Below are positions 14,185 to 56,508 of a stretch of DNA of 56,508 nucleotides, piece after piece. The notes under the pieces are model-generated. The model saw only the letters and a list, made by a program, of their open reading frames with translations, was not told where the DNA came from and did no database searches. Source of the DNA: a virus. Taxonomy: Duplodnaviria; Caudoviricetes. Location: IMG/VR virus record IMGVR_UViG_3300042402_005492, positions 1 to 56,508 of that record. One strand, 5' to 3'. Position 1 is the first letter of the stretch. The number at the start of each line of letters is the position of its first letter. The position numbers and the translations under genes were made by a program.

Positions 14185-14208
14185 AAATAACTATATTATA
14201 GTTTTTTT

Positions 14209-14217
14209 ATATTTATA
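14209..14217 (+). promoter_or_regulatory. Putative late promoter motif ATATTTATA
   Basis: Intergenic, 19 nt before ATG 14237; preceded by a short AACTATA-T-TATAGTT inverted repeat. Confidence 0.6.
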
Positions 14218-14236
14218 GGAAACCTTTTATATACGA

Positions 14237-28600: not shown

Positions 28601-31600
28601 ACTCAAATTTTCAACATAGCATCCGGTGCAACCATTGCTGATTTTGGAAATGGTGATAACCACTTTAGAACATACTATAATAACTACTTAGGTAATAGTA
28701 ATGGTGATTTAACTTGGGTTAATGATACCCTATATGTTGGTGCAAGTGATAGTGGAGATGCTGAATTCCGTTTTGGTGAAGATAGTAGTGGTTGGTATGG
28801 TGATAGATGGTATTGGGATTCTGCATATACCGTATATCGTTATAGTAGAGATGCCGGAACTGATTCACTAATTCATTACCATGATACTCGTGATACTACT
28901 AGAATTACTTATGGTAGAAACATCGTATTTAATGATTATGGTAAAGGTATAGTTGGTAACTATGATTCAACCCGATATCAAGCGGTATTTGCAATGGGCG
29001 ATTCATACAAATTACCTGCAAACGGAACTAACACCGGAACTTTATATGGTATAGCGTGGTCACACCCCAATGCTGGAGGAGTTGCAGGAAACTTAGCAGA
29101 TCATGGAATGCTAATACTTCAAAACGGAGCATTTAGAGGTGCTTGGGGTGGTGGTAGACTAGTAACAACTGCGGATATTAGAGCTACTATCTATTACGAT
29201 TATAATGATACAAGTTATTATGTAAATCCACGTTCTGATTCCAGAATGAGTGGACTTCGTTTGGATGGTATTGATAATGAGGCATCTGGAACCGATGCAA
29301 TTCTTTGGATAAATAAACCAAACAACAATGACTGGGCAATGATTGTTACCGGTAATTTGGAGTTTGGTATTGATATGAGAATGGCAGGTTCCCACTCTTA
29401 TGCATATAGAGCATTGAGAGCCGGAACTGAATACTATAGAGTTGGTAGTGATATGGTGTTTCATGATAACCAAATACGTACACCAACTTTCTATATTTCA
29501 AATGATACAACTTATTTATGGAATAATAATAGAATAGTAGTAAATCAAGTAACATTCCCTTATAGAGAATGGGATTTTAGTTGGGGAGCTCATGGTAATG
29601 GTAGTGGTACACAATCAATGACATTCCGAATGTGGGATAATTACACACAATCTGGTGCACCTTCTTCTTATGGTACTTTAATTGAATACTATGGGTTAAG
29701 TGGACACCAACATGACCAATTCTATTTCTATCAGGGTGAAATTCTTCATAGATACGGATGGTATGGTACTACAAACTGGCAAAGTGGGTGGAGAGCAATG
29801 TTGCATGCCGGAAACTATTCCGGATACTCAAACTTTAGTGGGGCTGTATATGGTACAATTTATTATGATGCAAACAATACTGCATTTTTTGCAGACCCTA
29901 ACTCTCGTTCTCGCTTATCTTCATTAGATTATGGATCTAGTGGATACTTTTTTGCAGGTGGTGATTGGGGCTGGAGACATAACACTCCATTTGGTTGGAT
30001 ACAATTTGGACCAGCTAACTCATCACACGCACACATTTATACATCATTATCAAACTTTTATTTCAACGCTCAATTACAAGTCAATGGTGGTAGCTTAATA
30101 AATACTAGTGATATTCAGGCAAATATATTCTACGATAGACAAAATACAGGATATTATACAGATCCTAATGGTTCATCTCAAATGAGTGCAGTATTTGCAG
30201 ATAACTTCTTTAGACCTCAGGGAGCAACCGGAGTATATTGGCAATCATACGATACTAGGATATTCTCCGATGACTCAACTTATATCAAATCTAGATCAAA
30301 TAATGGTTGGGTAATTTATGATAGAAGTGCTGGTTTAAGAGGATACCTATACTTTGATGGAAGTGGATTTGGATTATTACACTCTAGTGGTGGCTGGGCT
30401 GTAAGAACTACACCTAGTGAAGTTGAGTTATACAATATAACTTATGCTAACGATATGCGGGCATATATTTTCTACGATAGAGATAATACTGCATATTATG
30501 GTGACTTTGCTGGTCAGTCAAGAATAAACACAATGAATATGGGTCATGGTGGCGGACAGGTTTATGATACGGCCAGACAAGGAATTTTATTCTTTAACTC
30601 AAAGGGAGAGAGTGATATACAGGGATACTCAATTGGTACAACTTTAGAAAATTATAATGGTAATTATACAAAACTTACTTTAGATTGGCATACTGGTATA
30701 AAAATTGGAGCAGCCTTTAACTATGGTGGTATAAGATTTTATAACAACTCTGTCAAATATTATGGAGGTTCTCAGCTGTTTTCAATTGGGGAAGGGGATC
30801 AACACGTTAGAGTAAGTAATGTATTGTTTGCTTATGGTGATACAAGATCACCAATATTTTATGATAGTCAAAATACTGGATTTTATATAGATCCTGCAAG
30901 TCAAAATAGCTATATATATGGATTGGTATTATCAGGAGCAACTTATTTTAGACCAAATAGCTGGATACAAATAGATGGTCTTACGGGTATATACTGGCCT
31001 GGTTATTACGGAGCACACTTCTATCCTAACAATGGTAGTACATATACTCAATTAAGATATGATGGGCAAAAAAACGGATACGATGGTTTATGGCTAAGTT
31101 ATAGTCGCGTAAACGGAATGATGTATGATGGTGCTGGAAATGGTGGTGTATATAGAGAAGATAATGGTAGGTGGTTTTTTTACCATTATTTACCAGCCAA
31201 CTGTATGGGTATTGGTACATCCGCTACAAACTCAGCGTATGGTGTCTATGTTGTAAAGGGTGGATATTTTGATGGGCGTGTTGATGGTACAATATTTTAT
31301 GATGCAAATAATACCGGATATTATGCAGACCCAGCATCTACAAATAACTTCAACCAAACAGAGCAAAATGGTAGAATGTGGTATAGTAACTATACTGTAA
31401 GCCGAAATGAAGGTGGTATGATGGGTAGTTATAATGCTACTGGTACTGCTGCAAAAGTAATTTGGACTATTGGAGAGAGCTGGCCATTAGGAAATATGTA
31501 TGGTTTGGCTTACGAATATGGAGCTGGATATGACCACCACCTATCATTAAAAAATAATGGGTCAACCTATTCTCGTTTTGGATTTGCGGGTGGGGCATTT

Positions 31601-33260: not shown

Positions 33261-35585
33261 ATGGCAGAAAGAATTGTATCACCTGGTGTTTTTACAAGAG
33301 AAAATGATTTATCATTCCTATCACAAGGAATTGGTGAAATTGGAGCGGCATTTATAGGACCTTTTAAGCAAGGACCGGCATTCGTTCCAACAATCGTTAG
33401 AACCCAGTCCGAATTTGAGGAGATTTTTGGAACTCCTGATGGAACTTATTATACTGATTATGCAGTTCAAAATTATTTAAGAGAAGCTGGAGTAGCAACA
33501 ATTGTGAGAGTTGGTGGTGTTGATGGTTATACTCAAGCTGCACCTTTAGCAATCGTAGCATCTGGTTCAGCTGGTGAAAAAATTGTAGGTGTACTACATA
33601 ACACCAATAGATTATATCAAAATGTTGGTTTTACCGGAACTACTATTGCTAATGATGTAGATGGTAAATTTTTATTAACATTTTCATCAAGTTTTGCTGG
33701 AATAGCAGGAGCTACTTCAATATCTGCATCTATTTTACCTAGAGATATAAATGATTTATCTGATGTATTTGGCGAGTCACCGTTTTATTTTGTAGCTAGT
33801 CCTGCTAATGTAGTTTCTAACATCTATACTTACGCATATTTTGAGCATTTTGCATCTCAATCAATTGATGCGGTTGTAAGTAGAATTGTACTTCCATCTC
33901 AAGCATATACTCAAGATGCTACATTCGCTTCAACACCTTTTGTAAAATCACAAAACATTAGTGGAACTAGATTTAGTTTATTCCGTTTCCACACTTTAGG
34001 TGATGGTACTTTATATAATACTAAATTTAAGATTGGTATTTCTAATGTAAAAGCTGCTGGTGAAGATGGTGGAACTGATTACTCTGTATTTAGTGTAACT
34101 GTAAGAAGTTTCAGTGATACTGATAGAAGAAAAGTTGTATTGGAAACATTTAATAATGTTAACTTAGATCCAGCATCTCCAAATTATATTGCAAGAGTAA
34201 TTGGTGATAGAAACCTAACAATTGATGCTAACGGAAAAATCTCAGAAACTGGTGATTACACAAACCGATCAAAATATATTAGAGTAGAAGTTTCTACTCC
34301 AGGCTCATTCCCAATTTCTGCAGCACCATTTGGACATGATACATACCTTAATCCAATTAGAACAACTGGACAGGATACATTAGTACCTGCGGTAACATAT
34401 TCAACATTATCTACTGGTAACGATACATCATCTCCAATTAATTTTAGTGGATTTGATTTTGAGAGTGCAGGAATTAAAATTGATAATAATCAATATCTAA
34501 AACCAATACCAACTAATGCTGGAACCGGTTCGAATGTACCATTCTCCTTTGATGCTAACGGATTAACATTACAGATGACAGGTTCTAACTCAACTGATAT
34601 GGTGAGAAGACAATTTATCTTAGGATTTCAGGAAGGATTTGATGGAATGAATCCTGTTATCAAACCTTCATTAGGAGCGGATATTAGTAATGATAATACT
34701 CAAGGATTTAATTGTTCTAGTGCGGTTAGTAGTGGTACAGAAGCATATACTAAAGCGATTAACGCTGTATCTAATCCTGATGAGTGGGATATCAATATGG
34801 TAGTAACTCCTGGTATTATTAGAAGATTACACCCATTTGTGACTGCAAGAGTTATTGATATGGTAGAAGCTAGACAAGATGCATTCTACATCGCTGATTT
34901 TAACGGAGCAGATGATACAATTTCACAAGCAACCGAACAAGCTAATTCAGTAGATACAAATTACGCAGCAACTTATTATCCTTGGGTAAAAACTATTATT
35001 GCTCCTACTAACAAATTAGCGAGTGTACCACCTTCCGTATTGTTACCTGCAGTATTTGCAGCAAACGATAGATTAGCGGCAGAATGGTTTGCACCAGCTG
35101 GTTTGAATAGAGGTGGTATCATTGGAGCTGTTAATGTTCTAAACAGATTGACTCACTCCGAAAGAGATACTCTATATGAGAACAAGGTAAACCCAATTGC
35201 GGCATTCCCTGGACAAGGTATTGTTGCATACGGACAAAAAACTCTTCAAGATAGAGCATCTGCATTGGATAGAATTAATGTGAGAAGATTATTGATTGCG
35301 GTTAAGAAATTTGTAGCATCTACATCTAGGTTCTTGGTATTTGAGCAAAACACATCTACTACTAGAACCCGTTTCTTAAACACCGTAAATCCATACTTTG
35401 AGGCAATCCAACAGAGACAGGGACTTTACGCATTTAATGTAGTAATGGACGAAAGTAATAACACACCTGATGTTATTGATAGAAATATATTAGCTGGACA
35501 GATTTTCTTACAACCTGCTAAGACTGCTGAATTCATCGTAATTGATTTCAACATCTTACCAACTGGAGCAAGTTTCTCAGCATAA
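33261..35585 (+). CDS. Contractile tail sheath protein (T4 gp18-like)
   Basis: SPGVFTRENDLS, GPF..GP, YYPW, WFAPAGLNRG, LY..KVNPI, GQKTLQ..SALDRINVRRL, FEQN...TR, AEFI.IDF motifs. Confidence 0.95.
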   Translation: MAERIVSPGVFTRENDLSFLSQGIGEIGAAFIGPFKQGPAFVPTIVRTQSEFEEIFGTPDGTYYTDYAVQNYLREAGVATIVRVGGVDGYTQAAPLAIVASGSAGEKIVGVLHNTNRLYQNVGFTGTTIANDVDGKFLLTFSSSFAGIAGATSISASILPRDINDLSDVFGESPFYFVASPANVVSNIYTYAYFEHFASQSIDAVVSRIVLPSQAYTQDATFASTPFVKSQNISGTRFSLFRFHTLGDGTLYNTKFKIGISNVKAAGEDGGTDYSVFSVTVRSFSDTDRRKVVLETFNNVNLDPASPNYIARVIGDRNLTIDANGKISETGDYTNRSKYIRVEVSTPGSFPISAAPFGHDTYLNPIRTTGQDTLVPAVTYSTLSTGNDTSSPINFSGFDFESAGIKIDNNQYLKPIPTNAGTGSNVPFSFDANGLTLQMTGSNSTDMVRRQFILGFQEGFDGMNPVIKPSLGADISNDNTQGFNCSSAVSSGTEAYTKAINAVSNPDEWDINMVVTPGIIRRLHPFVTARVIDMVEARQDAFYIADFNGADDTISQATEQANSVDTNYAATYYPWVKTIIAPTNKLASVPPSVLLPAVFAANDRLAAEWFAPAGLNRGGIIGAVNVLNRLTHSERDTLYENKVNPIAAFPGQGIVAYGQKTLQDRASALDRINVRRLLIAVKKFVASTSRFLVFEQNTSTTRTRFLNTVNPYFEAIQQRQGLYAFNVVMDESNNTPDVIDRNILAGQIFLQPAKTAEFIVIDFNILPTGASFSA

Positions 35586-36242: not shown

Positions 36243-37001
36243 ATGGAACAACAAAAATATGATTTTCCAACCGAATTGTTGGATTTACCATCAAAAGGTT
36301 TAGTATATCCAAAGGATCATCCATTATCAAGCGGAACAATTGAAATTAAATATATGACGGCAAAGGAAGAGGATATTCTTTCAAATCAAAATCTTATCAA
36401 AAAAGGAGTAGTATTGGATAAATTATTTGAGTCTATAATTGTAGATAAAAGTATAAATCCAAATGATATTACTATTGGAGATAAAAATGCAATAATTGTA
36501 GCAACTAGATTATTGGGATACGGACATGAATATAAAATGTCATTCTATTCTTCAAAATTGACTAAAAGTGTTGAAACTATTATTGATTTATCGGAAATTA
36601 AAACAAAAGATGTAGATTTTTCACTCTTCAAAAATGCAAATGAGTTTGAATTCACAACTCCATTAGGTAAAAATAAAATTAAGTTTAAGTTATTAACTCA
36701 TGGTGATGAGAATGCGATTGAAAAAGATATTACTGCATTAGAAAGACTAGGAAAGGATGTATCTGCGGATATTACAACTAGATTGAGATATATGATTATT
36801 TCAGTAGATGGAAACTCAGAGGTATCACATATTAACCGTTTCGTAAACGGAATGTTAGCTAAAGATAGTAGAACATTTAGAAATTATATAAAAAGTATAT
36901 CACCCGATATGGATATGACGTTTACATATACCCACGATGATGGAGAGACGGAGGCTCTACCTATAACTTTAGGTGTGAACTTTTTTTGGCCTACCGAATA
37001 A
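36243..37001 (+). CDS. Tail/baseplate hub assembly chaperone (T4 gp26-like; lambda G-equivalent position)
   Basis: LPSKG..Y, YMTAKEEDIL, GDK.AI....R..GYG motifs, C-terminal NFFWP; lies between tube and tape measure genes. Confidence 0.75.
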   Translation: MEQQKYDFPTELLDLPSKGLVYPKDHPLSSGTIEIKYMTAKEEDILSNQNLIKKGVVLDKLFESIIVDKSINPNDITIGDKNAIIVATRLLGYGHEYKMSFYSSKLTKSVETIIDLSEIKTKDVDFSLFKNANEFEFTTPLGKNKIKFKLLTHGDENAIEKDITALERLGKDVSADITTRLRYMIISVDGNSEVSHINRFVNGMLAKDSRTFRNYIKSISPDMDMTFTYTHDDGETEALPITLGVNFFWPTE

Positions 37002-42297: not shown

Positions 42298-45017
42298 TGT
42301 GGCCAACTATATCAAACATTGATCTAAAAATTGCAAACAAAATTAAGAGCTATGCAAATGATAATCTAGCAGCATCAGGATTGAATGCTTGGGTTAGAGT
42401 ATACTCTGGAGCAATAAATGATAAAGGTCAACCGGGATTAATTTTACAATCAAATACCGATTTTAAAATATTTAGTGCAGCTGGTGAAAAATCTATATAT
42501 GGAAATTCTCAATTATCGGGAACCATTGGAACAGATTGGGATGGAAATCCTGTTGTTAGTGATGTTGGAAGAGTTTTAAGACCATCTCCAATAATAACTA
42601 CATTAAATTCCAAAGAAGGTCAGGATCAAATATCAAGAACTTGTGACTTTAGTATAACTTGTTTTTCATTAGAACAATTAGAATTAATACAAACTTATTT
42701 TATGGAACCTGGATATTCAGTTGGTGTTGAATGGGGATGGAATACTGGAGAGAGTGCTAAGGGGTTGATAAATACAGGCACTAAACAAAATGGAATACTC
42801 AACGCTATAGCAGATGTGACATTAAATAATGAACAACTTAGTTCAAAGCGTATATTTACTAGTGGTGAATATGATATATTTTTAGGATTTATAGTTGGCT
42901 CTACAGTTACTAGTGACGGTGAAAATTTTAAAGTTGATGTAAGATTAAGAGGAGCACCCTCATTACCCACGTATTTACAATCTCAAAACAGAATAACTAT
43001 AAAATCTGCAGGAACAGAACCTGATCCTGACAAATCTAAAGCCCTTTATCCTGAAAACGAACTTACTAGTGATGCTAATACCGAAGAAGAAGCTAAAAAG
43101 AGAAGGTTTAAATATATGTTTAACGAACTACCTGCTTTTAGACAAACTGAAAGTGTTAAAAAACTAATCGATAAAGCTAAAGCGATTGATTTTATAAATT
43201 TTGATAGAGTTATTCAAGCGAGAATTGATGAATTTTTAGCATCACAAACTGTGGACTCGGGAGAAGAGGAGGCTGCTCTAACCGGAGGTGAAGCTGTACC
43301 AGTGGTATCAGTGACTTTATCAGATGTTGGTGAAATTGAGGTGCCAAGAGAAAAATTATTCTCAACAAATAGATACCTTAGATTTGAATTGGCAATTGCT
43401 ATATTAAACGAAATAGGTACGGTTGATAAATATGAGTTTGGTGGAAAATCCGTGTCTTTTAAAATAAACATTGACACTACTGTAATAGGAGCGTTTCCTT
43501 ATATGTTTTCAACTAAAAAATCCAAACTACTTATTCCTGGAGCAGTTCCTGATTTTAAAAACACATATTTTTTATCTTCGGAAGAAATAGAGCAAAGGCA
43601 AAATGGATTATTAAATAACTATAATATCGTAAAAGCTGCCAATTTTGTAGCGTTTGTTGAACAATTTAATGCTTTGAACGATTTTGGATTAAAGGAAAAA
43701 AAAGGATACTATGGATATTTAAAAAATCTGTATGTAAATTTTGATATGTTCAAAGCCAAAATTGAACAAAAAAATAAAAACATAAGAGAAATACTTGAAG
43801 ATATTTTAAATGAAATGTCATCGGCAGTTAACTCATTTTGGAATTTTCAAATAGTAGAAGGAGAAATTAGAAAAACTGCGGAAGGAAGAGCAGCTGATTT
43901 TAGAAGAAACGCTCCAGGTGTTGCCGCTCCAGTGGCCACTAATACAGGTACATTTAATCCGCGTGGGGGATATATTGTGGGTGCAGGAGCTACTAATGTT
44001 GTAGCAGAATCGGATAGTAGTACATTCAGTGCCACTGGAGTAGAAAATGATATTGTGATAACGGTTGTAGATGAAAACTGGATTGGTGAAAATCCTGATC
44101 CAGGTGGACTTATAACATTTAATCATACTGGAGTAGGTTCTCCATTTTTAAACGCAACATTGGATATATCTATACCTGCTGAACTTGGTGCAAAAATTAT
44201 TAACACTAGATTGGGTGCTGTCAGTCAAACAGACGTTAGAGATGTAAGAATAACTAAAGATACTTTGTTTAATTCGGAAACAGATTTATTCTTAAAAAAA
44301 GTTCAACCACCTGTTTCTGGTTCTGATTCTGATAAAGATACAAACACAGACTTAAATGAAGATGAGCAAGTTACTGAAAATATAAAACAAATAGCAGAAC
44401 AGGAAGCGAAAATTGATAAATCTAAAACTGTAGATAGTACCCGTACAGAAAGTTCTGTGAATGGAGCAATACTTGTACGTCCTGTCCAAACTTTTTATGA
44501 TAAGGATGGTAACGTAATTAAAGTCACTGTAGATGGGGTTACTGAATACTACGCACAACTAAGATTAACTCAAGAACAGATTAGGGCAGCCGCTACTCAA
44601 GAAACTCAAATTAAAGTAGATCGTGTGACAACAAATTTGGAAAAGATAGATGTAGTTGCTAAACCAACTATATATACACTTTCAAATATGGCATTTCAAA
44701 CGGACTCTGGAGTAAAAGGTGGAGTTAAGGCATATTTTATGGTATATTGTTTAGATGATACTGATTTTCTTGAAAAAATGAAAACTTATTATTTTGAAGC
44801 AAAAGGAACTGGAGCATTATCTCAACCGTTACCAATAAAATATTCATTTACAATATTAGGAAATAGTGGAATACGAAGAGGTGATACCTTTAAAATAGAT
44901 GGTATTCCTAGAAAATACGCAGAAAAAGGAGTATTTCAAGTAACTGGAATAGAACATTCACTATCAGGTATGAGATGGGAAACTACAGTTGAAGGATTAT
45001 ATAGACAAATAGAATAA
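42297..45017 (+). CDS. Baseplate hub protein (gp27 / VgrG-like position)
   Basis: 906 aa; PG.SV..EWGW and C-terminal FTI.G.SGI..GD.F.ID..P..Y....FQVT.IEH......WETT; follows the LysM gene. Confidence 0.6.
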   Translation: MWPTISNIDLKIANKIKSYANDNLAASGLNAWVRVYSGAINDKGQPGLILQSNTDFKIFSAAGEKSIYGNSQLSGTIGTDWDGNPVVSDVGRVLRPSPIITTLNSKEGQDQISRTCDFSITCFSLEQLELIQTYFMEPGYSVGVEWGWNTGESAKGLINTGTKQNGILNAIADVTLNNEQLSSKRIFTSGEYDIFLGFIVGSTVTSDGENFKVDVRLRGAPSLPTYLQSQNRITIKSAGTEPDPDKSKALYPENELTSDANTEEEAKKRRFKYMFNELPAFRQTESVKKLIDKAKAIDFINFDRVIQARIDEFLASQTVDSGEEEAALTGGEAVPVVSVTLSDVGEIEVPREKLFSTNRYLRFELAIAILNEIGTVDKYEFGGKSVSFKINIDTTVIGAFPYMFSTKKSKLLIPGAVPDFKNTYFLSSEEIEQRQNGLLNNYNIVKAANFVAFVEQFNALNDFGLKEKKGYYGYLKNLYVNFDMFKAKIEQKNKNIREILEDILNEMSSAVNSFWNFQIVEGEIRKTAEGRAADFRRNAPGVAAPVATNTGTFNPRGGYIVGAGATNVVAESDSSTFSATGVENDIVITVVDENWIGENPDPGGLITFNHTGVGSPFLNATLDISIPAELGAKIINTRLGAVSQTDVRDVRITKDTLFNSETDLFLKKVQPPVSGSDSDKDTNTDLNEDEQVTENIKQIAEQEAKIDKSKTVDSTRTESSVNGAILVRPVQTFYDKDGNVIKVTVDGVTEYYAQLRLTQEQIRAAATQETQIKVDRVTTNLEKIDVVAKPTIYTLSNMAFQTDSGVKGGVKAYFMVYCLDDTDFLEKMKTYYFEAKGTGALSQPLPIKYSFTILGNSGIRRGDTFKIDGIPRKYAEKGVFQVTGIEHSLSGMRWETTVEGLYRQIE

Positions 45018-45024
45018 AAATATT

Positions 45025-45393
45025 ATGGCAATAAATATTCTCAGATATAATAAAATTTTGGAAAATGATGTAAAGGACTTTACTATTCGTAAAATACGGA
45101 CATCTGCCCTATTACCAACTGAAGATGATTACAAAATAGGATATATTCAACGATACTTTATTCAAAAAAGAAACGATGAGGGATCTTACATATATGAAGT
45201 GACGAAACAATATTTTGGCAATATATTAGATAACCCATTTTTTAAAGGGGTAACACTAAAATGGAAAATATCAGGAAATAGAGAGGAAGTTAGAGAGATG
45301 AACCGAAAATCTGTAAGTTATTCATCTAAGGATATGAAAACACTTTCATTGTATCTACCAAATCATTTACAATTTCATAAAGAAAGAGTATAA
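45025..45393 (+). CDS. Hypothetical protein (baseplate region)
   Basis: 122 aa; PT..DY..GYI.RYF....N motif; co-transcribed. Confidence 0.6.
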   Translation: MAINILRYNKILENDVKDFTIRKIRTSALLPTEDDYKIGYIQRYFIQKRNDEGSYIYEVTKQYFGNILDNPFFKGVTLKWKISGNREEVREMNRKSVSYSSKDMKTLSLYLPNHLQFHKERV

Positions 45394-45416
45394 AATAAGT
45401 TTTGAAAAAAAAGGTT

Positions 45417-45425
45417 ATATTTATT
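45417..45425 (+). promoter_or_regulatory. Putative late promoter motif ATATTTATT
   Basis: 24 nt before the small basic ORF at 45450. Confidence 0.55.
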
Positions 45426-45449
45426 CAAAAATAAACTCAAATAAAGTAT

Positions 45450-45581
45450 ATGGCAAAAGGTGGTAAGGGTGCTGTTGCATCTCAAAAGATTTCGTTTGGT
45501 AAGAAAAGAACTGGAGTAGCTAAAAAGTCCTACTCAAAATACGAAGAAAAACCAAAAAAATATAGAGGACAGGGTAGATAA
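45450..45581 (+). CDS. 43-aa highly basic protein, missing from the ORF track
   Basis: MAKGGKGAVASQKISFGKKRTGVAKKSYSKYEEKPKKYRGQGR*; has its own promoter motif and fills the intergenic gap. Confidence 0.75.
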   Translation: MAKGGKGAVASQKISFGKKRTGVAKKSYSKYEEKPKKYRGQGR

Positions 45582-45585
45582 ATAA

Positions 45586-45617
45586 TTTGGAATTGTGGAA
45601 TTTTTTTATTACCTTTG
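45586..45617 (+). promoter_or_regulatory. Bacteroidota sigma-A type promoter
   Basis: TTTG (45586) - 20 nt - TACCTTTG (45610). Confidence 0.75.
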
Positions 45618-45622
45618 TATAA

Positions 45623-46912
45623 ATGAATGTAGTAGAGACAGCTTCCGAACTAAAAGAATTAAAGGAGTATATTAGTGGTAAATCCTCATATTGGTTTCCG
45701 ATGTGGGTTGATTTTGATCTACACCCACTAAACAACCAATTATCCTTTATTTTCATCCGATGTGACGAGCGAGAATATATTCTACCACACAATCATATAG
45801 ATACTCTCTCAATAGATTTGGAGGGTATATACGATGTTCTTTTAACAAAAGGGTATAAATGGGTGTTTGGATGTAAGAAGTTCTTAAACACTCTTAAAAC
45901 CCCTAATTTGGAATTATACGATATTGATACCGCTTGGTTCTTAAAAACATCCCAAACGATAGATTATCGTACTCCATTCGAAGGTTTATTGCATGGTTGG
46001 AAAACCAAAGGATATTATGATAATCTCATACAATCCATCCCAATTCTAAAATTATGTGAAGTAATACAAACTATAATTCCAAAATATACCGATTTGGACG
46101 ATAGTGATTATAACTTCTATTGGTACAACCTAACATATATCCCCCTCCTTTCAGAAATTGAGAAATGTGGGGTTCGAGTCGATGGGAAAAAATTTACAGA
46201 TAGATGGTCTCACTCCCAAAAACACATTTCCTCCACTAACCGAGTCTTCACCGAATACAATCCATTCACAATTACGGGTAGACCTTCCAACCGATTTGGG
46301 GGTATCAACTTTGCAGCCCTTAACAAAACCGATGGGAGTAGAGAATGTTTCGTATCTGATGGGATATTCCTACAAATGGATTACGATGCGTACCACCCTC
46401 GTCTTATCGGTAAGTTGATTGGATACGAACTCCCTAAAACCTCCGTTCACCGATGGTTGAGTGAGCAATACGGAACAACATACGAAGAGGGTAAAGGGGT
46501 AACATTCCAACTCCTCTATGGGGGAATACCTGATGAGTTTTTGCAAATCCCATACTTTAAGAGTGTAGATGAGTACATTAAAGATTTGTGGGTAAAAGTA
46601 CAAAGGGATGGGTATTTAACCACATTAAAAAGAAGGATACCTCTGAGTTGGATAGAAGGAGCAAACCCACAAAAGGTGTTCAACTACTTATTACAGGCAG
46701 TAGAAACAGAACTCAATGTGGATAAGATTGGTAAGATATTGGATTATATAAAGGGTAGTGGAATAACTTTTTGTTTATATACCTATGACTCGTTCCTTTT
46801 TGATGTACCTATAGATGTGGATACTGATACGATAGTAAAACTCAAAGGGATTGTAGAAGGGGGTGGATTTCCGATAAAAGCGAGTTGGGGTGAAAATTAT
46901 GGAAACCTATAA
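45623..46912 (+). CDS. Compact family A DNA polymerase-like protein (degenerate exonuclease domain, thumb largely missing)
   Basis: IE..GV.VD, TITGRPSN, motif A DYDAYHPR, motif B K..TFQLLYG, NYLLQ..E, motif C YTYDS. Confidence 0.8.
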   Translation: MNVVETASELKELKEYISGKSSYWFPMWVDFDLHPLNNQLSFIFIRCDEREYILPHNHIDTLSIDLEGIYDVLLTKGYKWVFGCKKFLNTLKTPNLELYDIDTAWFLKTSQTIDYRTPFEGLLHGWKTKGYYDNLIQSIPILKLCEVIQTIIPKYTDLDDSDYNFYWYNLTYIPLLSEIEKCGVRVDGKKFTDRWSHSQKHISSTNRVFTEYNPFTITGRPSNRFGGINFAALNKTDGSRECFVSDGIFLQMDYDAYHPRLIGKLIGYELPKTSVHRWLSEQYGTTYEEGKGVTFQLLYGGIPDEFLQIPYFKSVDEYIKDLWVKVQRDGYLTTLKRRIPLSWIEGANPQKVFNYLLQAVETELNVDKIGKILDYIKGSGITFCLYTYDSFLFDVPIDVDTDTIVKLKGIVEGGGFPIKASWGENYGNL

Positions 46913-46917
46913 ACCCG

Positions 46918-46926
46918 ATATTTATA
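46918..46926 (+). promoter_or_regulatory. Putative late promoter motif ATATTTATA
   Basis: Intergenic, before ATG 46953. Confidence 0.6.
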
Positions 46927-46952
46927 GTATGTAACAAAAACTATACTATAAT

Positions 46953-47561
46953 ATGAAAAAAACGGTGTTTCTTTTAGGATTTCTATTCATTTCTTTAAGT
47001 GGATTTGCTCAACTTCCTGATGTAAAGGTTAAGAACGAAGTGTTCGAAGTACTTTACTCACAATCGTTGGAGCAACCCATTTGGATTAAATACCGTTCGA
47101 TAAACCGTCCTACTAATGTGAATAGGGGACACATGAATTTTTACAAAGAGAAGGATATACACACTTCGGATGATTTAGATTATAAAGCGAATGTATACGA
47201 TAAAGGACATGGAGCACCTGCGGCAACATTTTCTGATAATGAAGTAAACCTAAAACAAACATTTTCATACCTAAACTCAATAATGCAGGACCAGTACCTT
47301 AATAGAGGTGAGTGGAGATTGTTAGAAGAGCAAGAAAGAAAATGGGATGATATCGAACCATTGACTGTAGTAATAAAAACATTTTATGATAACCCAGTAC
47401 TTAGAGTACCAACTGGAGCGGCAATTCCATCTTATATAGAAAAACATATCTACTTTGAAAAGAGTAAAAGGTGGGAATGTTTTGTATTCCTAAATGAAAG
47501 ACCTAAGTATAAGTGGAGTGAGTTGGGAAAACTTTGTAAGGATGTAGAACACAAATTTTAA
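46953..47561 (+). CDS. Secreted DNA/RNA non-specific endonuclease (NucA/EndoG family)
   Basis: Signal peptide MKKTVFLLGFLFISLSGFA-Q; YDKGH.APAA, TF.Y.N...Q...LNRG.W..LE motifs. Confidence 0.85.
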   Translation: MKKTVFLLGFLFISLSGFAQLPDVKVKNEVFEVLYSQSLEQPIWIKYRSINRPTNVNRGHMNFYKEKDIHTSDDLDYKANVYDKGHGAPAATFSDNEVNLKQTFSYLNSIMQDQYLNRGEWRLLEEQERKWDDIEPLTVVIKTFYDNPVLRVPTGAAIPSYIEKHIYFEKSKRWECFVFLNERPKYKWSELGKLCKDVEHKF

Positions 47562-47566
47562 TAAAT

Positions 47567-49366
47567 ATGACTTTAACTGAATTAATAAAAGAAATACTTT
47601 CTGAGTGGGGATGTAGAGTAGATGATGGGATGCCAAATCCTAAAAATCCACAACACATTGGAGAATTGGTGGAAGTATTAGAGGTTATGGGGTTATCCTC
47701 CATTAAAAACGAATTGATTGCAAATATTTTAGAAGGGGATGATTTTAAAAATCCTGCTCTAAATAAAGTAATCAGTTATAAAAGTGTAAATGGTGAAGAT
47801 GCGGAAGGTAAAGTTGGAAACCTACTAAGAAGACCTTCAGAAGAAGATGCTCACAAACAAGCAGTAGCTGCGTTAGGTGGTGAAGGGAGTGATAACTATA
47901 AAAAAGCAATGAAAGATTTGGGTGGAGAAGGTCAACCTGAAAAGAAAGCTGAGAAAGAAAAGGAAGGAGATGGTGAAGGTGGTGGAGAAAAGGGGGAACC
48001 TCAAACTGGTAATGCTTTAGATCCTAGTACTCCAGCTGGAAAGAAATTTACTGATCAATTATCACCAACCGATCCTGAATACACCGGACCAGATAAAAGT
48101 GAAGACTCTGTTGAGGGAGATAAAACGGCTGATAAAGGAGAAACTAAACAATTATCAGCAGCAACTATAAAAAGTAAACAAAAACAATTAGAGGATGCTA
48201 GAAGGAGAATGGACTCCGGAAATCATAACGATGATACTAAACAGGCGTTTAAGGTGTTTGATGAGAGTATGAACAAATTATTAAATGCTAAAACTGATGA
48301 AGAACGAGTAGAAGCTTTAAGAGTTTTATCAGATAACGGATTTTTAAAAAGAAATGCGAATGGTAAAAAACTTTACATAGATAACTTACCACTTCCAAGT
48401 AAACAAATAACTGGCGATAGTGGTGATGCGTTTGGTTCAATGATAAATAAGTTGGCGGAGGATAACGAAATAGATATTCCATTAAGAGATGAGTCATCCG
48501 ATAGAGCTCTTGCTGATGTGAGTGGTAAGCATAATGAAGCTGGTGTTGCGTATTTGTTAGACCCATCTGAAAAGAACAAAAATGAGTATGATAACTACAA
48601 AGACCAGTATGAAAGTTATGGTGGTGATGAAGAAGCAGCCCACAAACAAAATGAAGCAGCTGTTCAGGCGATAAACGAAGAAATAGGAAGAAGTTTTCCT
48701 GGAGGAAAAGTAAAATCCGCAACTCAAGTAGGTGGTATAGGACCTGAAAAATTAAAAAAATTAGGTATAGATCCTAAAAAAGACCCTACCGATGTTTTGA
48801 TTGAAATTGAAATGCCAGATGGTACTACTAAGTATATGAAAGTTAGTATGAAGGTATATGCAGATCCAAGTAGTATTACTATGAAAAATTCTGGAATGGG
48901 TGATGCTGGCTCTCATTATTTGGGAAGTCCTGAAATTGATAGTCAATTAAAAGCCCTTAGAGAAAAACATAATTATTTAGAACCTGGAATATCACCCGAA
49001 GAAGTAAATACCCGAAAAAGAGCATTTAAAGAAGCGTATTTAACACTATTTTCCGAAAAAATGGTAGAACTTTCAAGCACACCTGAAGGACAAGAAAAAC
49101 TTATGGAAATGTGGAAAGAAGTTCATGGATGTGGAAATGATGTTTATACTTCTGTGACAAATAAGACAACAGGTGAAACAAAAGTACATAAACCGGAACA
49201 CTATTGTGAGCCAGAAATACCATTTAAAGTTGAATATGATGGTGTGAAGGTAGTAATTCGAATGGGTGGTGAAAATGATAGCTCTTTCTTAGAGATAGTA
49301 TGTAAAACTGAGTCAGGCGGTTCTCCAAAAATTTTATTTAATCACAAAAAGAGTAAAAAGAAGTAA
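47567..49366 (+). CDS. Hypothetical, possibly capsid-internal, protein with a C-terminal PD-(D/E)xK-like motif
   Basis: 599 aa, highly charged; N-terminal (I/L)xE motifs; HNEAG ... PTDVLIE ... VSMK. Confidence 0.5.
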   Translation: MTLTELIKEILSEWGCRVDDGMPNPKNPQHIGELVEVLEVMGLSSIKNELIANILEGDDFKNPALNKVISYKSVNGEDAEGKVGNLLRRPSEEDAHKQAVAALGGEGSDNYKKAMKDLGGEGQPEKKAEKEKEGDGEGGGEKGEPQTGNALDPSTPAGKKFTDQLSPTDPEYTGPDKSEDSVEGDKTADKGETKQLSAATIKSKQKQLEDARRRMDSGNHNDDTKQAFKVFDESMNKLLNAKTDEERVEALRVLSDNGFLKRNANGKKLYIDNLPLPSKQITGDSGDAFGSMINKLAEDNEIDIPLRDESSDRALADVSGKHNEAGVAYLLDPSEKNKNEYDNYKDQYESYGGDEEAAHKQNEAAVQAINEEIGRSFPGGKVKSATQVGGIGPEKLKKLGIDPKKDPTDVLIEIEMPDGTTKYMKVSMKVYADPSSITMKNSGMGDAGSHYLGSPEIDSQLKALREKHNYLEPGISPEEVNTRKRAFKEAYLTLFSEKMVELSSTPEGQEKLMEMWKEVHGCGNDVYTSVTNKTTGETKVHKPEHYCEPEIPFKVEYDGVKVVIRMGGENDSSFLEIVCKTESGGSPKILFNHKKSKKK

Positions 49367-49424: not shown

Positions 49425-49826
49425 ATGAATACACAGTTACTATGTACTTTCACTACAAAAGGTGAAATGGAGTCTACATTACATACGATTAGAGAAAAAT
49501 ACACTATAGTTTATAACTATATATACATACTACAAAACAAGTCCAATTTAGATGAATTATTTGTGACCTATAACATAGATACAAATAATCAACCTGATAA
49601 ACCACTAAATGGTACTATATTAATCCACAGAAAGAAGGAAAGTAATACATTATATACCATTAATGCGTTAAATGAATTAATCAAAGAAGAAAACGGAGGA
49701 AAATTAGATAAATCCTTTGTTTTAGATTGGGATAAGTTCAAAAACTCAATTATCTTAACAAATGTTAGTGGAACAAAAAGGATACAGACTAGAGTATATG
49801 AAGTAATATCTTTTAGTGAAAATTAA
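49425..49826 (+). CDS. Hypothetical phage protein
   Basis: 133 aa; LLCTFT ... TYN ... IHRKKESNTLYTINALN. Confidence 0.7.
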   Translation: MNTQLLCTFTTKGEMESTLHTIREKYTIVYNYIYILQNKSNLDELFVTYNIDTNNQPDKPLNGTILIHRKKESNTLYTINALNELIKEENGGKLDKSFVLDWDKFKNSIILTNVSGTKRIQTRVYEVISFSEN

Positions 49827-49861: not shown

Positions 49862-50695
49862 ATGCTACTTAAAAAAGGTGATAACAACGAAAATGTTAAG
49901 TTAATGCAACAAAAGCTGGGTATTGAACCAGCGGTAACTAATTTTGGACCTAAGACTGAAGAAGCAGTAAAGGCATTCCAAGCAAAAAATGGTCTTCCTG
50001 CTGATGGTGTTGTAGGACCGGCAACTTGGGCAAAGATTATGGGACAGGAAGCACCTAAAGCACAACCATCTGCTCCAATAGTACCAGTAGCGGGATTGAA
50101 ATTGGATAAACTAAAAGGACATATTCCTGATGCGGTAATCCAAATGATACCTGATACGGCTGCTAAGTTCCAAATCAACACTCCATTAAGATTGGCACAC
50201 TTCTTAGCACAATGTGGACACGAAAGTGGTGGATTTAAGGCAACACAAGAAAATCTAAACTATTCTGCTAAAGGATTAAATGGTATCTTCAAAAAGTATT
50301 TCCCAACTGAAGCAGCAGCAACTCCTTATGCAAGACAACCACAAAAGATTGCAAACAAAGTGTACGCAAATCGTATGAGTAATGGTGATGAAGCGAGTGG
50401 TGATGGGTATAAGTTTAGAGGTAGAGGATATATCCAATTGACTGGTAGAGCAAACTATACTTTGTTTGGAAAAGCAATCGGTGAAGATGTAACTGGAAAT
50501 CCAGATGTAGTAAGTGGTAAGTACGCATTACTTTCAGCAGCTTGGTTCTGGTCAAACAACGGATTGAATAAATTAGCAGATGGTGGTTCAACTGATACTG
50601 TAGTAACAACTATTACTAAAAGAGTAAATGGTGGAACTATTGGATTAGCTGACCGTATCAAACACTTTAAGGAGTATTACCATCTATTAGCCTAA
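49862..50695 (+). CDS. Endolysin: peptidoglycan-binding domain plus glycoside hydrolase family 19
   Basis: FGPKT..AVK.FQ...GL..DGVVGP.TW; AHFLAQ..HESG.F...ENLNY; FRGRG.IQLTGR.NY; VNGG..GL.DR. Confidence 0.9.
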   Translation: MLLKKGDNNENVKLMQQKLGIEPAVTNFGPKTEEAVKAFQAKNGLPADGVVGPATWAKIMGQEAPKAQPSAPIVPVAGLKLDKLKGHIPDAVIQMIPDTAAKFQINTPLRLAHFLAQCGHESGGFKATQENLNYSAKGLNGIFKKYFPTEAAATPYARQPQKIANKVYANRMSNGDEASGDGYKFRGRGYIQLTGRANYTLFGKAIGEDVTGNPDVVSGKYALLSAAWFWSNNGLNKLADGGSTDTVVTTITKRVNGGTIGLADRIKHFKEYYHLLA

Positions 50696-53024: not shown

Positions 53025-53597
53025 ATGAAAAATTTTAAAATCGAATACAATGTTAATAATGGTAAACAAATTGAATTAAGAACAATTGATTTATCTAAAG
53101 AGTTAAGTGTAGTTCAATTTGGTAAGCTTGGTTTTAAAAAAGTAGCTGATATGGTTTTAACCGATTCAAATAACATTGGATTGAAAATGATGTATAAAGA
53201 TTATATTTCAACAAAAGAATACAATGAACATTGTCATGGTGTTTATTTAATTGTTATCGATGGTAAAATTGTTAAAATCGGTGGAACTGAAACGGGTTTA
53301 GCAAAAAGATGGGGTTCTTACAATAATGGAACTGATAAAATTAGAAATGGCGCTGCGAACGGTTCTGTGACAAATTATTATGTTGCAACCGCACTTAAAG
53401 CCGCATTAAAAACTGGTCACTCAGTTGAATGGTATTATAAAAAAATGAATTACGAAACTAGAACTTTAAATTTATATGGTATAGAAATTACTGAAAATGT
53501 ATGTGTTGATGGAACATATAAGATGCATGAAAAAACACTATTGGAATTTTATAAAAATAAATCAAATAATTACCCAAAATTATCGGCTAATTCATAA
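53025..53597 (+). CDS. GIY-YIG-like endonuclease
   Basis: GVYLIVIDGKIVKIGGT...L.KRW.SY ... HEK.LL..Y......P..S.N. Confidence 0.6.
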   Translation: MKNFKIEYNVNNGKQIELRTIDLSKELSVVQFGKLGFKKVADMVLTDSNNIGLKMMYKDYISTKEYNEHCHGVYLIVIDGKIVKIGGTETGLAKRWGSYNNGTDKIRNGAANGSVTNYYVATALKAALKTGHSVEWYYKKMNYETRTLNLYGIEITENVCVDGTYKMHEKTLLEFYKNKSNNYPKLSANS

Positions 53598-53605
53598 TTA
53601 TATAT

Positions 53606-54520
53606 ATGATAAAATTTGATGGTATTATTACCAACCCCCCTTATGCTGATTCATCCCATGCTGAACAGAAAAATACATTATGGAGAAAGTGGTTTACATT
53701 TGATAAATTAATTAAAGAGAATGGAGTTTTCGCTGAAATAATTCCATCATCTTGGATGGGTAGTCCGCCTTTGATAAAAGATAATTTTTTAGATGAAAAT
53801 TTAAAAATTTCTAAAAATATAACTCACATAAATTTAGATGAATGTGGTAAATATTTTAAAGGAGTTGGTCAAAAATTTTCTTATTTTGTTTACACTAAAG
53901 ATGAATATAAAAACGAAACAAATTTAGTGGTAAGAAATATTGATGGCAGTATTGAGTCATTTACCGAAAACTTAAATAATGTTATTTTTGATGTATTTCC
54001 AAGAGACTTAAGCCCACTCGCAATATCTATTTTAAATAAAACAATTGTAAATACAAAACCTATTGGTATACTGAATACAACGGTTTGTCATGGAAACAAT
54101 AAACATTTATGGAAACATAATCCTCAAGATGAGTTTATACATGCGGTTGAAAAAACTCCAAATAAAACTATTTTTTATAAAAAACAACATCCGCATCAAG
54201 GTATCCCTAAAATTATAATACCAACAACTACTTATTATAGATCAATGTATTATACTGAAAACGGTACATCTCAAAGTTTTTGTTATTATAATCTTAAAGA
54301 TGGCGAAGAACGAGATATAGTATTAAATAACTTAAATAATAAACTATTTGATTATATCAACGAATGTTTTAGATATTCAAATTGGAATTCTGTAAATCTT
54401 TTAAAAAAATTACCCACATTACCATTAAATATTCAATTAACTGATAGCGAAATATATGAGTTTTTTAACTTAACTGAGGATGAAATTTCACATATAAATA
54501 AAATAATCTTATGGAGATAG
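53606..54520 (+). CDS. Amino-DNA methyltransferase catalytic/target-recognition half (Eco57I/TaqI-like)
   Basis: Begins FDGIITNPPY (motif IV), then IIPSSW; C-terminal IYEFFNLTEDEI; no AdoMet-binding motif I. Confidence 0.75.
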   Translation: MIKFDGIITNPPYADSSHAEQKNTLWRKWFTFDKLIKENGVFAEIIPSSWMGSPPLIKDNFLDENLKISKNITHINLDECGKYFKGVGQKFSYFVYTKDEYKNETNLVVRNIDGSIESFTENLNNVIFDVFPRDLSPLAISILNKTIVNTKPIGILNTTVCHGNNKHLWKHNPQDEFIHAVEKTPNKTIFYKKQHPHQGIPKIIIPTTTYYRSMYYTENGTSQSFCYYNLKDGEERDIVLNNLNNKLFDYINECFRYSNWNSVNLLKKLPTLPLNIQLTDSEIYEFFNLTEDEISHINKIILWR

Positions 54521-54990
54521 CCGTTTATAAAAATTTTGTTCGTTCTTATGGGTATATGAGTGGTATTGCTAGAAATAAATCTCGACAAGACTCTACACAA
54601 GAATACTTTACTTGTCAAGAATTTGTAGAAGAGGTACTAGATAAAGTTGAATACTCAAAAAAAGACATTTTTACAAATGCTGATAATAAACTATTAGATA
54701 ATGCAGCGGGAGATGGGCAATTTTTAACGGAAGTTGTAATTCGTAAAATGGAAAGAAGCCATTGTACCTTAGAACAAGCACTTTCTACAACCTATGGGGT
54801 AGAGTTAATGGAAGATAATGTAAAGTTGTGTAAAGAAAGATTAGCAGGTCCAAATCCAACACAAGAAATTTTGGATATTATTGATAGAAATATAGTATGT
54901 GCAGACGCTTTAACTTATCATTATCGGTTTGATGGCACTCATCCAACAGCTTCACTAACCGAATTAAAAAAAGATGAATTCTTTACTTAA
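54511..54990 (+). CDS. Amino-DNA methyltransferase AdoMet-binding half
   Basis: EYFT (X), LLDNAAGDGQFL (I), YGVELMEDN (II), NIVCADAL (III); no NPPY. Confidence 0.75.
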   Translation: MEIAVYKNFVRSYGYMSGIARNKSRQDSTQEYFTCQEFVEEVLDKVEYSKKDIFTNADNKLLDNAAGDGQFLTEVVIRKMERSHCTLEQALSTTYGVELMEDNVKLCKERLAGPNPTQEILDIIDRNIVCADALTYHYRFDGTHPTASLTELKKDEFFT

Positions 54991-55135: not shown

Positions 55136-55972
55136 ATGGCTATTAACTTAGACGCAATCAGAGGTAGACTGAACAAACTACAAAACACAACAGCTAAGAC
55201 TGTAGAACAATGGAAACCAGCTCCTGGTAAACATCAAATTCGATTAGTTCCTTACAAATTCAATAAGGAAAATCCTTTTATCGAATTACTATTCCATTAC
55301 GGAATTAACAACAAAACTTATCTATCACCACAATCTTTCGGTAGACCTGATCCGATTGTGGAATTCGCTGAAAAACTGAAAAGAATGGGCGATAAGGAGG
55401 ACTGGAAAAGTGCCAGAAAAATGGAACCAAAACTTAGAACTTTTGTACCAGTATTGGTAAGAGGTGAAGAAGGTGATGGAGTTCGTTTTTGGGGATTTGG
55501 AAAGACGGTATATCAAGAAATTTTAGGATACATTGCAGATCCTGATTACGGAGATATTACTGATGCACATCAAGGAAGAGATATCGTTGTTGAAATTGTA
55601 TCAGCGGAAGATAGTGGAACATCTTATCCAGTAACAACTATTAGAGTTAAACCAAAAGAAACACCTTTGGCTGATACTAAAGAAGCAACTGATAAGTTTC
55701 TAAATGAGCAAAAGAACATTACTGAACTTTACCAAGAACTTAGTTATGCAGAATTGAAAGCGGTATTAGAAGGTTGGTTAAATCCATCAGCAGGTGGAGA
55801 TGATGATGTGGTAGAAGCCGTATCAACAGAGCAACTTTCTAATGTAGCATCAACAGGAAAAACTCAATCGCATGATATGGGTGGACCTACATCACCATCA
55901 AAGGAAGTAGAAGCACCAACTAAAAAGTTGGATGATGTAGCTGCAGCATTTGATGACCTATTCAATTCTTAA
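55136..55972 (+). CDS. Single-stranded DNA-binding protein (T4 gp32-like)
   Basis: WKP..G...IRLVP, NPF....FHY, DPI, GVRFWGFGK.VY, YGDITD...G.D motifs; acidic C-terminus AFDDLFNS. Confidence 0.85.
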   Translation: MAINLDAIRGRLNKLQNTTAKTVEQWKPAPGKHQIRLVPYKFNKENPFIELLFHYGINNKTYLSPQSFGRPDPIVEFAEKLKRMGDKEDWKSARKMEPKLRTFVPVLVRGEEGDGVRFWGFGKTVYQEILGYIADPDYGDITDAHQGRDIVVEIVSAEDSGTSYPVTTIRVKPKETPLADTKEATDKFLNEQKNITELYQELSYAELKAVLEGWLNPSAGGDDDVVEAVSTEQLSNVASTGKTQSHDMGGPTSPSKEVEAPTKKLDDVAAAFDDLFNS

Positions 55973-55984
55973 TAACCAAAACTT

Positions 55985-56508
55985 ATGGCGAAAGCAACTA
56001 AGGAAGTGGACTTGGCGGAAATACTCGCCGAGTCCCTTAATAAACAATCAAAAGACCAGAAAGTAGCATTCTTTTTGGACAACAATGACTCCCCTACTAA
56101 TGTAGAAGGTTGGGTATCAACTGGAGCATCAATGTTGGATGTGGCAATTTCTAATAGACCTTATGGAGGTTTGCCTGTTGGTAGAATTACCGAAATCACC
56201 GGATTGGAACAAAGTGGTAAATCATTGGTATCAGCTCACTTACTTGCCGAAACACAAAAGTTAGGTGGTATTGCTGTATTGATTGATACTGAAAATGCTG
56301 TAAGTAGAGAATTCTTAGAAGCCATTGGAGTAGATACAACCAAATTACTTTATGTAACGGCTGAGACTGTTGAGCAATGTTTTGAATATACGGAAACAAT
56401 CATCGAAAAGGTGAGAGTTGCATCGAAAGATAAGTATGTGACAATTGTTGTGGACTCAGTAGCAGCGGCATCAACTGAAAAGGAGATGGAAGCTGATTAT
56501 GGTAAAGA
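55985..56508 (+). CDS. recA: RecA/UvsX-like recombinase, 3'-truncated (missing from the ORF track)
   Basis: STGASMLDVAIS...GGLPVGRITEITGLEQSGKS (Walker A), IDTENA, IVVDSVAA (Walker B). Confidence 0.95.
   Translation, partial: MAKATKEVDLAEILAESLNKQSKDQKVAFFLDNNDSPTNVEGWVSTGASMLDVAISNRPYGGLPVGRITEITGLEQSGKSLVSAHLLAETQKLGGIAVLIDTENAVSREFLEAIGVDTTKLLYVTAETVEQCFEYTETIIEKVRVASKDKYVTIVVDSVAAASTEKEMEADYGK

Follow-up and report, generated by a model that had tools for sequence, protein, structure and literature searches.

What is the role of a family A DNA polymerase that keeps its catalytic core in only 429 residues, with the thumb cut back and several residues of the nucleotide pocket exchanged? 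The question is raised by the IMG/VR virus record IMGVR_UViG_3300042402_005492 (Duplodnaviria; Caudoviricetes), whose entire 56,508 bases were analysed (hereafter, the window) and which CheckV rates as 28% complete. An original prediction concerned an open reading frame (ORF) at 45623-46912 and read its product as a thumb-less, exonuclease-degenerate enzyme, not the replicase but a distributive nucleotidyltransferase with possibly altered sugar selectivity. The ORF is genuine, lying on the plus strand and encoding 429 amino acids (aa), and sequence comparison identifies the window polymerase as a divergent new member of divPolA1. The finding holds, but a description of the family dates from 2024 (Yutin et al., 2024, Virol J 21:200; PMC11348598), and this is not a new kind of system. 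The protein is probably an active, non-proofreading, low-processivity second DNA polymerase tied to a recombination and lagging-strand gene block.

Assignment to the divPolA1 family

The divPolA1 family was described computationally from 14 phages of 155-190 kb, where it accompanies a regular polymerase belonging to family A, B or C; gene 1 of Flavobacterium phage immuto serves as the exemplar. Its members show conserved palm catalytic residues, a truncated thumb and an inactivated exonuclease domain (PMC11348598). Replication genes follow divPolA1 in a conserved order and the regular polymerases lie in variable neighbourhoods, and from the conserved replication-gene context the authors argued for a part of divPolA1 in replication (PMC11348598).

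When phage genomes are searched by tblastn with the window polymerase, immuto gene 1, annotated as 'DNA polymerase family A', is retrieved (E = 4e-36, 26.9% identity, 91% coverage), as well as Microcystis phage Mel-JY01 and an uncultured phage of 484 kb. Direct blastp comparison with immuto divPolA1 gives E = 1e-45. Further, a family hidden Markov model (HMM) built from the window protein and 136 representatives matches immuto divPolA1 end to end (444.9 bits, HMM positions 2-441). The same HMM scores E. coli Pol I at 46.3 bits and does not report the regular 778-aa PolA of immuto.

The wider kinship with family A is clear from profile and fold despite a Pfam score below threshold. The 429-aa protein matches PHROG 17 'DNA polymerase' at E = 4.5e-11, and phmmer with the single sequence returned no match among PDB sequences. 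Plain Pfam and PHROG searches are weak, and the kinship emerges clearly with a profile from an alignment of 70 family members.

Fold and thumb remnant

The AlphaFold2 model of the protein is of high predicted quality (predicted local distance difference test, pLDDT, 96.3; predicted template modelling score, pTM, 0.93), and its top solved match in Foldseek is Klenow 1kfd (E = 4.3e-19). All 50 structural matches listed are DNA polymerases, and no RNA polymerase occurs among the 50 matches listed in either of two fold searches. Of the 50 matches listed from predicted viral structures, 46 are PolAs of 517-1057 aa, none of them as compact as the whole 429-aa polymerase; the remaining four, of 313-406 aa, are mostly fragments. 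The model indicates a complete Klenow-like enzyme in reduced size, with an exonuclease-like N-terminal domain, a thumb remnant and trimmed fingers.

The reduction is greatest in the thumb. IEKCGV begins at residue 179 and TGRPSN at residue 218, so that the landmarks start 39 residues apart; the corresponding IERNGV and TGRLSS of E. coli Pol I start at 540 and 666 and are 126 apart, 87 more than in the window protein. The earlier estimate of only about 30 residues between IEKCGVRVD and TITGRPSN is borne out by a count of 28, against the much longer Pol I spacing. In the model, no intact thumb is seen: two short helices (188-194 and 196-201) occupy its place. The profile of 70 family members finds Klenow in two pieces (E = 1.4e-12), skipping chain residues 236-316, which have no counterpart. 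Whole E. coli Pol I is likewise matched in two pieces, 524-558 and 635-909. The spacing from E180 to R220 is 23-43 residues in 137/137 aligned sequences. The full thumb subdomain, as a family A feature, is absent from the window protein. The fingers are also shorter, with 38 residues from D253 to K291 (53 in E. coli Pol I) and 98 from K291 to D389 (124 in E. coli Pol I).

The nucleotide pocket

The family alignment was compared by hhalign with the Klenow part of E. coli Pol I (reference taken from NC_000913.3), which it matches with a probability of 97.8%. Both catalytic Asp residues are kept, D253 at the place of D705 and D389 at that of D882. In motif B, Y287, K291, F295 and Y299 correspond to R754, K758, F762 and Y766, and further along the chain N354 and Q358 correspond to N845 and Q849. 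The family A hallmarks that are present thus comprise the motif A and C Asp residues, the O-helix Lys/Phe/Tyr, TGR and N..Q. Residues that read the minor groove are also kept (equivalents of R668, R682, N845 and Q849).

Conservation was counted in 136 full-length representatives clustered at 50% identity. R220, D253, H258, K291, Q358, Y388 and D389 are each found in 136/136, F295 in 133 and Y299 in 135. The original prediction had noted His for the motif A Glu, loss of the motif B Arg and YDS for the motif C HDE, and the profile alignment agrees on all three, placing H258 at E710, Y287 at R754 and Y388-D389-S390 at H881-D882-E883. These changes extend to the representatives. The steric-gate Glu of family A (E710) is His in the window protein and in every representative, the R754-equivalent position is Tyr in 104/136 and Arg in three, and position 390 (equivalent to E883) is Ser in 112, Ala in 20, Gly in four and Glu in none. 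The nucleotide pocket has thus been rebuilt family-wide in a fixed manner (E710 to His, R754 to Tyr, H881 to Tyr, E883 to Ser or Ala). We regard the invariant His, together with the swaps to Tyr, Tyr and Ser or Ala, as the most interesting feature of the protein.

One study of Pol I calls E710 universally conserved in family A, describes it as a steric gate against ribonucleotides that is important for fidelity, and reports the E710A and E710Q variants as poor, mutator enzymes whose fingers close badly (PMC3715850). The words 'steric' and 'ribonucleotide' do not occur in the text of Yutin et al. (PMC11348598), in which the figure alignments may show the residues. The altered pocket may reflect relaxed sugar choice, suitability for RNA primers or compensation for the smaller fingers.

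The exonuclease-like domain

In the fold search, the AlphaFold2 model aligns from residue 1 with the exonuclease domains of Pol I enzymes. The hhalign alignment to the Klenow exonuclease domain is colinear but weak (probability 22%), and the residue assignments that follow are read from it. The ExoI residues D355 and E357 are matched by P26 and W28; position 26 is Pro in 100/136 representatives and position 28 is hydrophobic. The mapping is supported by the spacing from P26 to H58, which at 32 residues equals that from D355 to H387. The only conserved acidic positions in the N-terminal 170 residues are D/E60 (136/136) and D100 (132/136), which align with PVAHD and FDTML of Klenow, neither of them a catalytic place. 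The four-carboxylate exonuclease site is thus not conserved.

The window protein has D30-F31-D32 just past the mapped ExoI place, with Asp30 in only 84/136 and position 32 variable, and there is no acidic residue in the stretch where the ExoII Asp is expected (residues 74-95). The absence of an evident ExoI DxE, noted in the original prediction, thus extends across the family as the lack of a conserved DxE, with Pro and a hydrophobic residue at the places given by the weak alignment. Overall, the exonuclease fold is kept and its catalytic carboxylates are replaced, with the individual residues assigned from the weak alignment (probability 22%).

Family size and conservation

At E <= 1e-3, at least 3987 database proteins match the 429-aa protein; the 120 matches listed are mostly 425-431 aa long. 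An exhaustive search of representatives at 50% identity gives 996 matches (E <= 1e-3), of which 492 reach E <= 1e-30, and at 90% identity the family forms thousands of clusters. The best 150 of the 996 representatives are 153-471 aa long, with none longer, so close homologues of full Pol I length are not among them. Decay or misassembly of the polymerase gene is ruled out by the conservation and the constant length of the homologues. Because the invariant residues and the short thumb spacing run throughout the representatives and the length is constant, the odd features are fixed characters of the family, kept by selection.

Members of the family lie on large contigs of aquatic phages, and two kinds of cultured phage have them too. 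In a species-representative genome collection it is present on 12 contigs of metagenome-assembled genomes (MAGs) only, of mixed taxa, and no isolate genome there carries the gene. The MAG occurrences are most simply explained as phage DNA binned with bacteria.

Gene neighbourhood

The window phage is contractile-tailed, with a sheath and a T4-like hub present (Table 1). Its DNA is AT-rich, almost all long ORFs lie on the plus strand, no tRNA genes were found in the window and megablast of 12 kb of it against phage genomes gave no match. A promoter and terminator scan of 44800-47700 gave counts equal to or lower than those of shuffled sequence.

Table 1. Positions of the polymerase gene, its motifs and surrounding genes in the window
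Feature	Position	Strand	Remarks
Tail sheath	33261-35585		
T4-like baseplate hub protein	36243-37001		
divPolA1-type compact family-A DNA polymerase gene	45623..46912	+	429-aa ORF, ATG start
Vestigial 3'-5' exonuclease-like domain, ~residues 1-160	45623..46102	+	Model aligns with Bst and Klenow exonuclease domains
Residual thumb, residues 179-215	46157..46267	+	IEKCGVRVD plus 28 residues before TITGR
Motif A, D253...H258 (DYDAYH)	46379..46396	+	hhalign: D253 = D705, H258 = E710
Motif B (O-helix), Y287...K291...F295...Y299-G300	46481..46522	+	hhalign against Klenow
Motif C, Y388-D389-S390	46784..46792	+	Equivalent to H881-D882-E883
133-aa protein	49425..49826	+	With divPolA1 in 34/35 IMG/VR loci with enough flank
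Endolysin	49862-50695		
gp32-like single-strand DNA-binding protein	55136..55972	+	phrog_1192, E = 3.2e-23; 37% identity to immuto counterpart
RecA/UvsX-like recombinase, N-terminal 174 aa, cut by record end	55985..56506	+	phrog_97, E = 3.4e-36

Upstream of the polymerase, the window encodes the sheath, a tube-like 162-aa protein, the baseplate hub, four large tail proteins and a 122-aa protein. Downstream lie an endonuclease, a 599-aa and a 133-aa protein, the endolysin, small ORFs, methyltransferases, the single-strand DNA-binding protein (SSB) and RecA/UvsX. Phage immuto has the sheath, a 162-aa protein, the hub and large tail proteins, followed across the end and start of its record by divPolA1, the 133-aa homologue, one ORF, SSB, the recombinase, a 5'-3' exonuclease and DnaB. 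The conserved block of Mel-JY01 is as in immuto.

Synteny was counted by blastp (E <= 1e-5) at 54 IMG/VR loci encoding a relative, using for each gene only loci with enough flank. Tail genes lie upstream of the polymerase in 46/46 loci and the 122-aa ORF in 45/46; downstream, the 133-aa gene is found in 34/35, the 599-aa gene in 36/44 and SSB in 17/28. In one relative (L038), SSB is followed by RecA, a Pol I-type 5'-3' exonuclease (PF02739, PF01367) and DnaB. Its SSB homologue matches Pfam gp32, and the full-length RecA homologues of this locus and of L007 match Pfam RecA (E ~1e-60). As the same gene order recurs in immuto and relatives, the window gene is the positional orthologue of divPolA1.

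The 133-aa protein regularly accompanies divPolA1. Its homologue in immuto stands directly after divPolA1, and at 45% identity it is more conserved than the polymerase (26%). At least 5167 database proteins match it. Its sequence is very strongly conserved, with invariant stretches H68-R69-K70-K71 and Y77-T-I-N-A-L-N83. Its predicted structure has a pLDDT of 92.2, and no family or fold match emerged in the searches run. A complex prediction from the polymerase and 133-aa alignments scored 0.25 against a mark of 0.32, which speaks neither for nor against binding. The protein may be a nucleic-acid-binding partner within the replication block.

Several other genes surround the polymerase. The gene adjoining it downstream (46953-47561, plus strand) encodes a DNA/RNA non-specific endonuclease (Endonuclease_NS) whose N-terminus resembles a signal peptide; since a homologue is found in only 9/54 related loci, it is an insertion outside the conserved block. 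The 599-aa protein (47567-49366, plus strand) is rich in Glu, Lys and Gly over a long N-terminal half, its C-terminal part is conserved, and it matches no family. Upstream, the 230-base gap before the polymerase holds a very basic 43-aa ORF (45450-45581, plus strand), a place taken in relatives by ORFs of 165 or 325 aa that are unrelated to it. Between the endolysin and SSB, an endonuclease-like ORF (phrog_1111) and then two DNA methyltransferase-like ORFs (53606-54990) occupy 53025-54990 on the plus strand.

Farther upstream, two giant plus-strand ORFs, at 14237-23563 (3108 aa) and 25613-32641 (2342 aa), contain many collagen triple-helix repeats and are probably tail fibres; the C-terminal end of the second is a Peptidase_S74 intramolecular chaperone domain. 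The raised G+C content and long antisense ORFs at 20-28 kb are due to the collagen repeats. A third giant ORF (4321-13284, plus strand, 2987 aa) has a short Wza_C-like match only.

Two deposited annotations in Mel-JY01 (L075, PP395634.1) also touch this block. Its divPolA1 homologue (8692-9918) is deposited as a 'hypothetical protein'. The 346-aa gene after RecA and before the helicase (14087-15127), the position of the 5'-3' exonuclease, is deposited as 'DNA polymerase I', for which it is far too short.

Regular polymerases and primase in relatives

The original prediction suggested looking for a separate PolB or PolC replicase in the genome. In relatives that are complete or at least 90% complete, a regular polymerase is present in six of seven: PolB in G001-G003, Mel-JY01 and LR756508, and a regular PolA in immuto. 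The PolB of G001-G004 and Mel-JY01 lies ~19-28 kb downstream of divPolA1 and is 841-852 aa long in the former and 855 aa in the latter. PolB was also found in five of ten further, fragmentary relatives. Among the IMG/VR relatives examined, 9/15 have a regular polymerase, and neither a regular PolA nor PolC was found in those that bear PolB. In the 484-kb uncultured phage (LR756508.1, W03; 260623-266900 and 47415-48068), PolB matches fall in two separate open frames of 1022 and 625 aa, and there is a 575-aa Pol III alpha-like ORF as well. A DnaG-like primase is encoded in all five genomes examined, which makes a primase role for divPolA1 unlikely; Toprim_2 was found in immuto only.

Possible role

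Removal of the thumb tip from Klenow weakens DNA binding and processivity. divPolA1 is a single-chain polymerase derived from Pol I and cut to ~430 residues. Having kept the metal-binding Asp residues, the minor-groove residues and the Lys, Phe and Tyr of the O-helix, it is expected to copy a template from a primer. With the thumb tip and the proofreading carboxylates lost, it would hold DNA weakly on its own, make short products and correct no errors, so that it is best read as a short-patch polymerase. The divPolA1 gene opens a conserved block comprising the 133-aa protein, a gp32-like SSB, RecA/UvsX, a Pol I-type 5'-3' exonuclease and DnaB. From this position, and from the full-size PolB encoded elsewhere, we infer short-patch synthesis linked to recombination or to lagging-strand and Okazaki-fragment processing. 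A 'split Pol I' would then result, in which the polymerase and a 5'-3' exonuclease from a separate gene represent the modules of bacterial Pol I.

The part of the original prediction that stands is a conserved, thumb-truncated family A enzyme with no proofreading site. That the enzyme is not the replicase, works distributively or may have an altered choice of sugar goes beyond the observations on fold, motifs, conservation and gene order, and like activity and low processivity is here treated as conditional.

Several observations weigh against an active, short-patch second polymerase. The searchable literature reports no activity for divPolA1, with only Yutin et al. (2024) and its preprint naming the family. 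Pfam DNA_pol_A (PF00476) scores the 429-aa protein at 14.4 bits, under the gathering cut-off of 34.3, and an invariant His for E710 could signal another substrate or a weak enzyme. No second DNA polymerase was found in the window record, which is 28% complete and ends 9.6 kb past the gene. Similarly, no match to PolA, PolB or PolC was obtained in the relative G005 (rated 96% complete); its contig ends inside the divPolA1 gene and is uninformative on a second polymerase, because the region where relatives keep PolB is missing from it. Finally, the constancy of divPolA1 beside a regular polymerase that varies among families A, B and C fits a core role equally.

That last point also speaks for an alternative that is unlikely yet deserves serious weight, in which divPolA1 is the true replicative polymerase, made processive by a partner, and the variable 'regular' polymerases are accessory. 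divPolA1 is constant in position and presence, and the regular polymerase belongs to family A, B or C by genome, both in the published set and in the relatives studied here; the regular polymerases also lie in variable neighbourhoods (PMC11348598). The place of divPolA1 at the head of a block with SSB, RecA, 5'-3' exonuclease and DnaB would suit a replicase, and so would a G005 with no other polymerase match. However, such a replicase would serve phages of ~150-480 kb with neither thumb tip nor proofreading site, the PolBs of relatives are of full size (841-855 aa), and the G005 contig breaks inside the divPolA1 gene, with the region downstream missing.

Also unlikely, in our judgement, is a combined proposal in which sugar selection has been relaxed or re-aimed, with an invariant His at the place of the steric-gate Glu of every other family A DNA polymerase. 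divPolA1 would then act in primer extension and Okazaki maturation, resembling Pol alpha or forming a 'split Pol I' with its partner, the separate 5'-3' exonuclease, and would hand over to a proofreading PolB in a very large group of aquatic phages.

A change or relaxation of sugar selection in itself, leading to ribonucleotide addition or to Pol-alpha-like extension of RNA primers before handover to PolB, appears quite improbable. The Asp-Ser of motif C may recall motif C of T7 RNA polymerase, and Glu is found there in none of the 136 representatives. A His at the residue that the Pol I study presents as the steric gate (PMC3715850) points in the same direction in 136/136, and the gene is close to DnaB and SSB. 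Against this, the F762 and Y766 equivalents are kept, all 50 structural matches listed are DNA polymerases, and a bulky His could still block the 2'-OH. The separate DnaG-like primase in 5/5 genomes also means that divPolA1 is not needed as a primase.

A polymerase dedicated to a modified nucleotide or template, as DpoZ is to 2-aminoadenine, is very unlikely. The invariant pocket changes, the genes for nucleotide metabolism and modification near regular polymerases (PMC11348598) and the methyltransferase-like ORFs of the window would be in keeping with it. No base-modification pathway was identified, however, and from the roles of the Klenow residues the changed positions touch the sugar, phosphates and primer end, not the base edge. 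That the protein is a catalytically dead relic kept as a structural or regulatory element, or that the gene is a product of faulty assembly, is scarcely credible: the low Pfam score and the lost exonuclease site are outweighed by catalytic Asp, O-helix Lys and minor-groove residues that are invariant in 136/136, and by thousands of homologues of the same length with no stops.

The family is of interest beyond this locus. With 996 clusters at 50% identity, it is an abundant natural experiment in minimal Pol I, in which thumb tip and proofreading are lost and four pocket residues that are near-essential in textbook work have been replaced in a fixed way. The substrates of divPolA1 would show why large phages keep a stripped-down second polymerase beside a normal replicase, and could yield a compact enzyme with unusual nucleotide tolerance.

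Comparison with known systems

T7-like single-subunit RNA polymerases are not known to carry a steric-gate Glu or a Glu following the Asp of motif C. They share these absences and the family A palm with the window protein, which has no counterpart of their N-terminal promoter-binding domain. Compared with Klenow and the Bst Pol I large fragment, the window protein has no ExoI carboxylates, 87 fewer residues between IE(R/K)xGV and TGR (E. coli) and swapped pocket residues.

The divPolA2 proteins of barbaviruses are similar in being a second divergent PolA with no normal thumb, encoded beside PolB (PMC11348598). They are compared here by their description only, as having an unrelated N-terminal globular domain, no exonuclease fold and variable neighbourhoods (PMC11348598). 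In contrast, the window protein keeps both the exonuclease fold and a fixed neighbourhood.

The closest comparison is with divPolA1 itself. The published account lists genomes of 155-190 kb, with more perhaps in its supplements (PMC11348598), whereas the present relatives reach further, with records rated complete at 252-271 kb and another at 484 kb. Unlike in immuto, ~8 kb separate the polymerase from SSB in the window, a stretch that holds the endonuclease, the 599-aa and 133-aa proteins, the endolysin and the methyltransferases. The exemplar and the window protein are only 26-27% identical, yet they share the truncated thumb, the dead exonuclease domain and the conserved palm residues, and in the alignment the His, the Tyr-Asp and other invariant positions are common to both.

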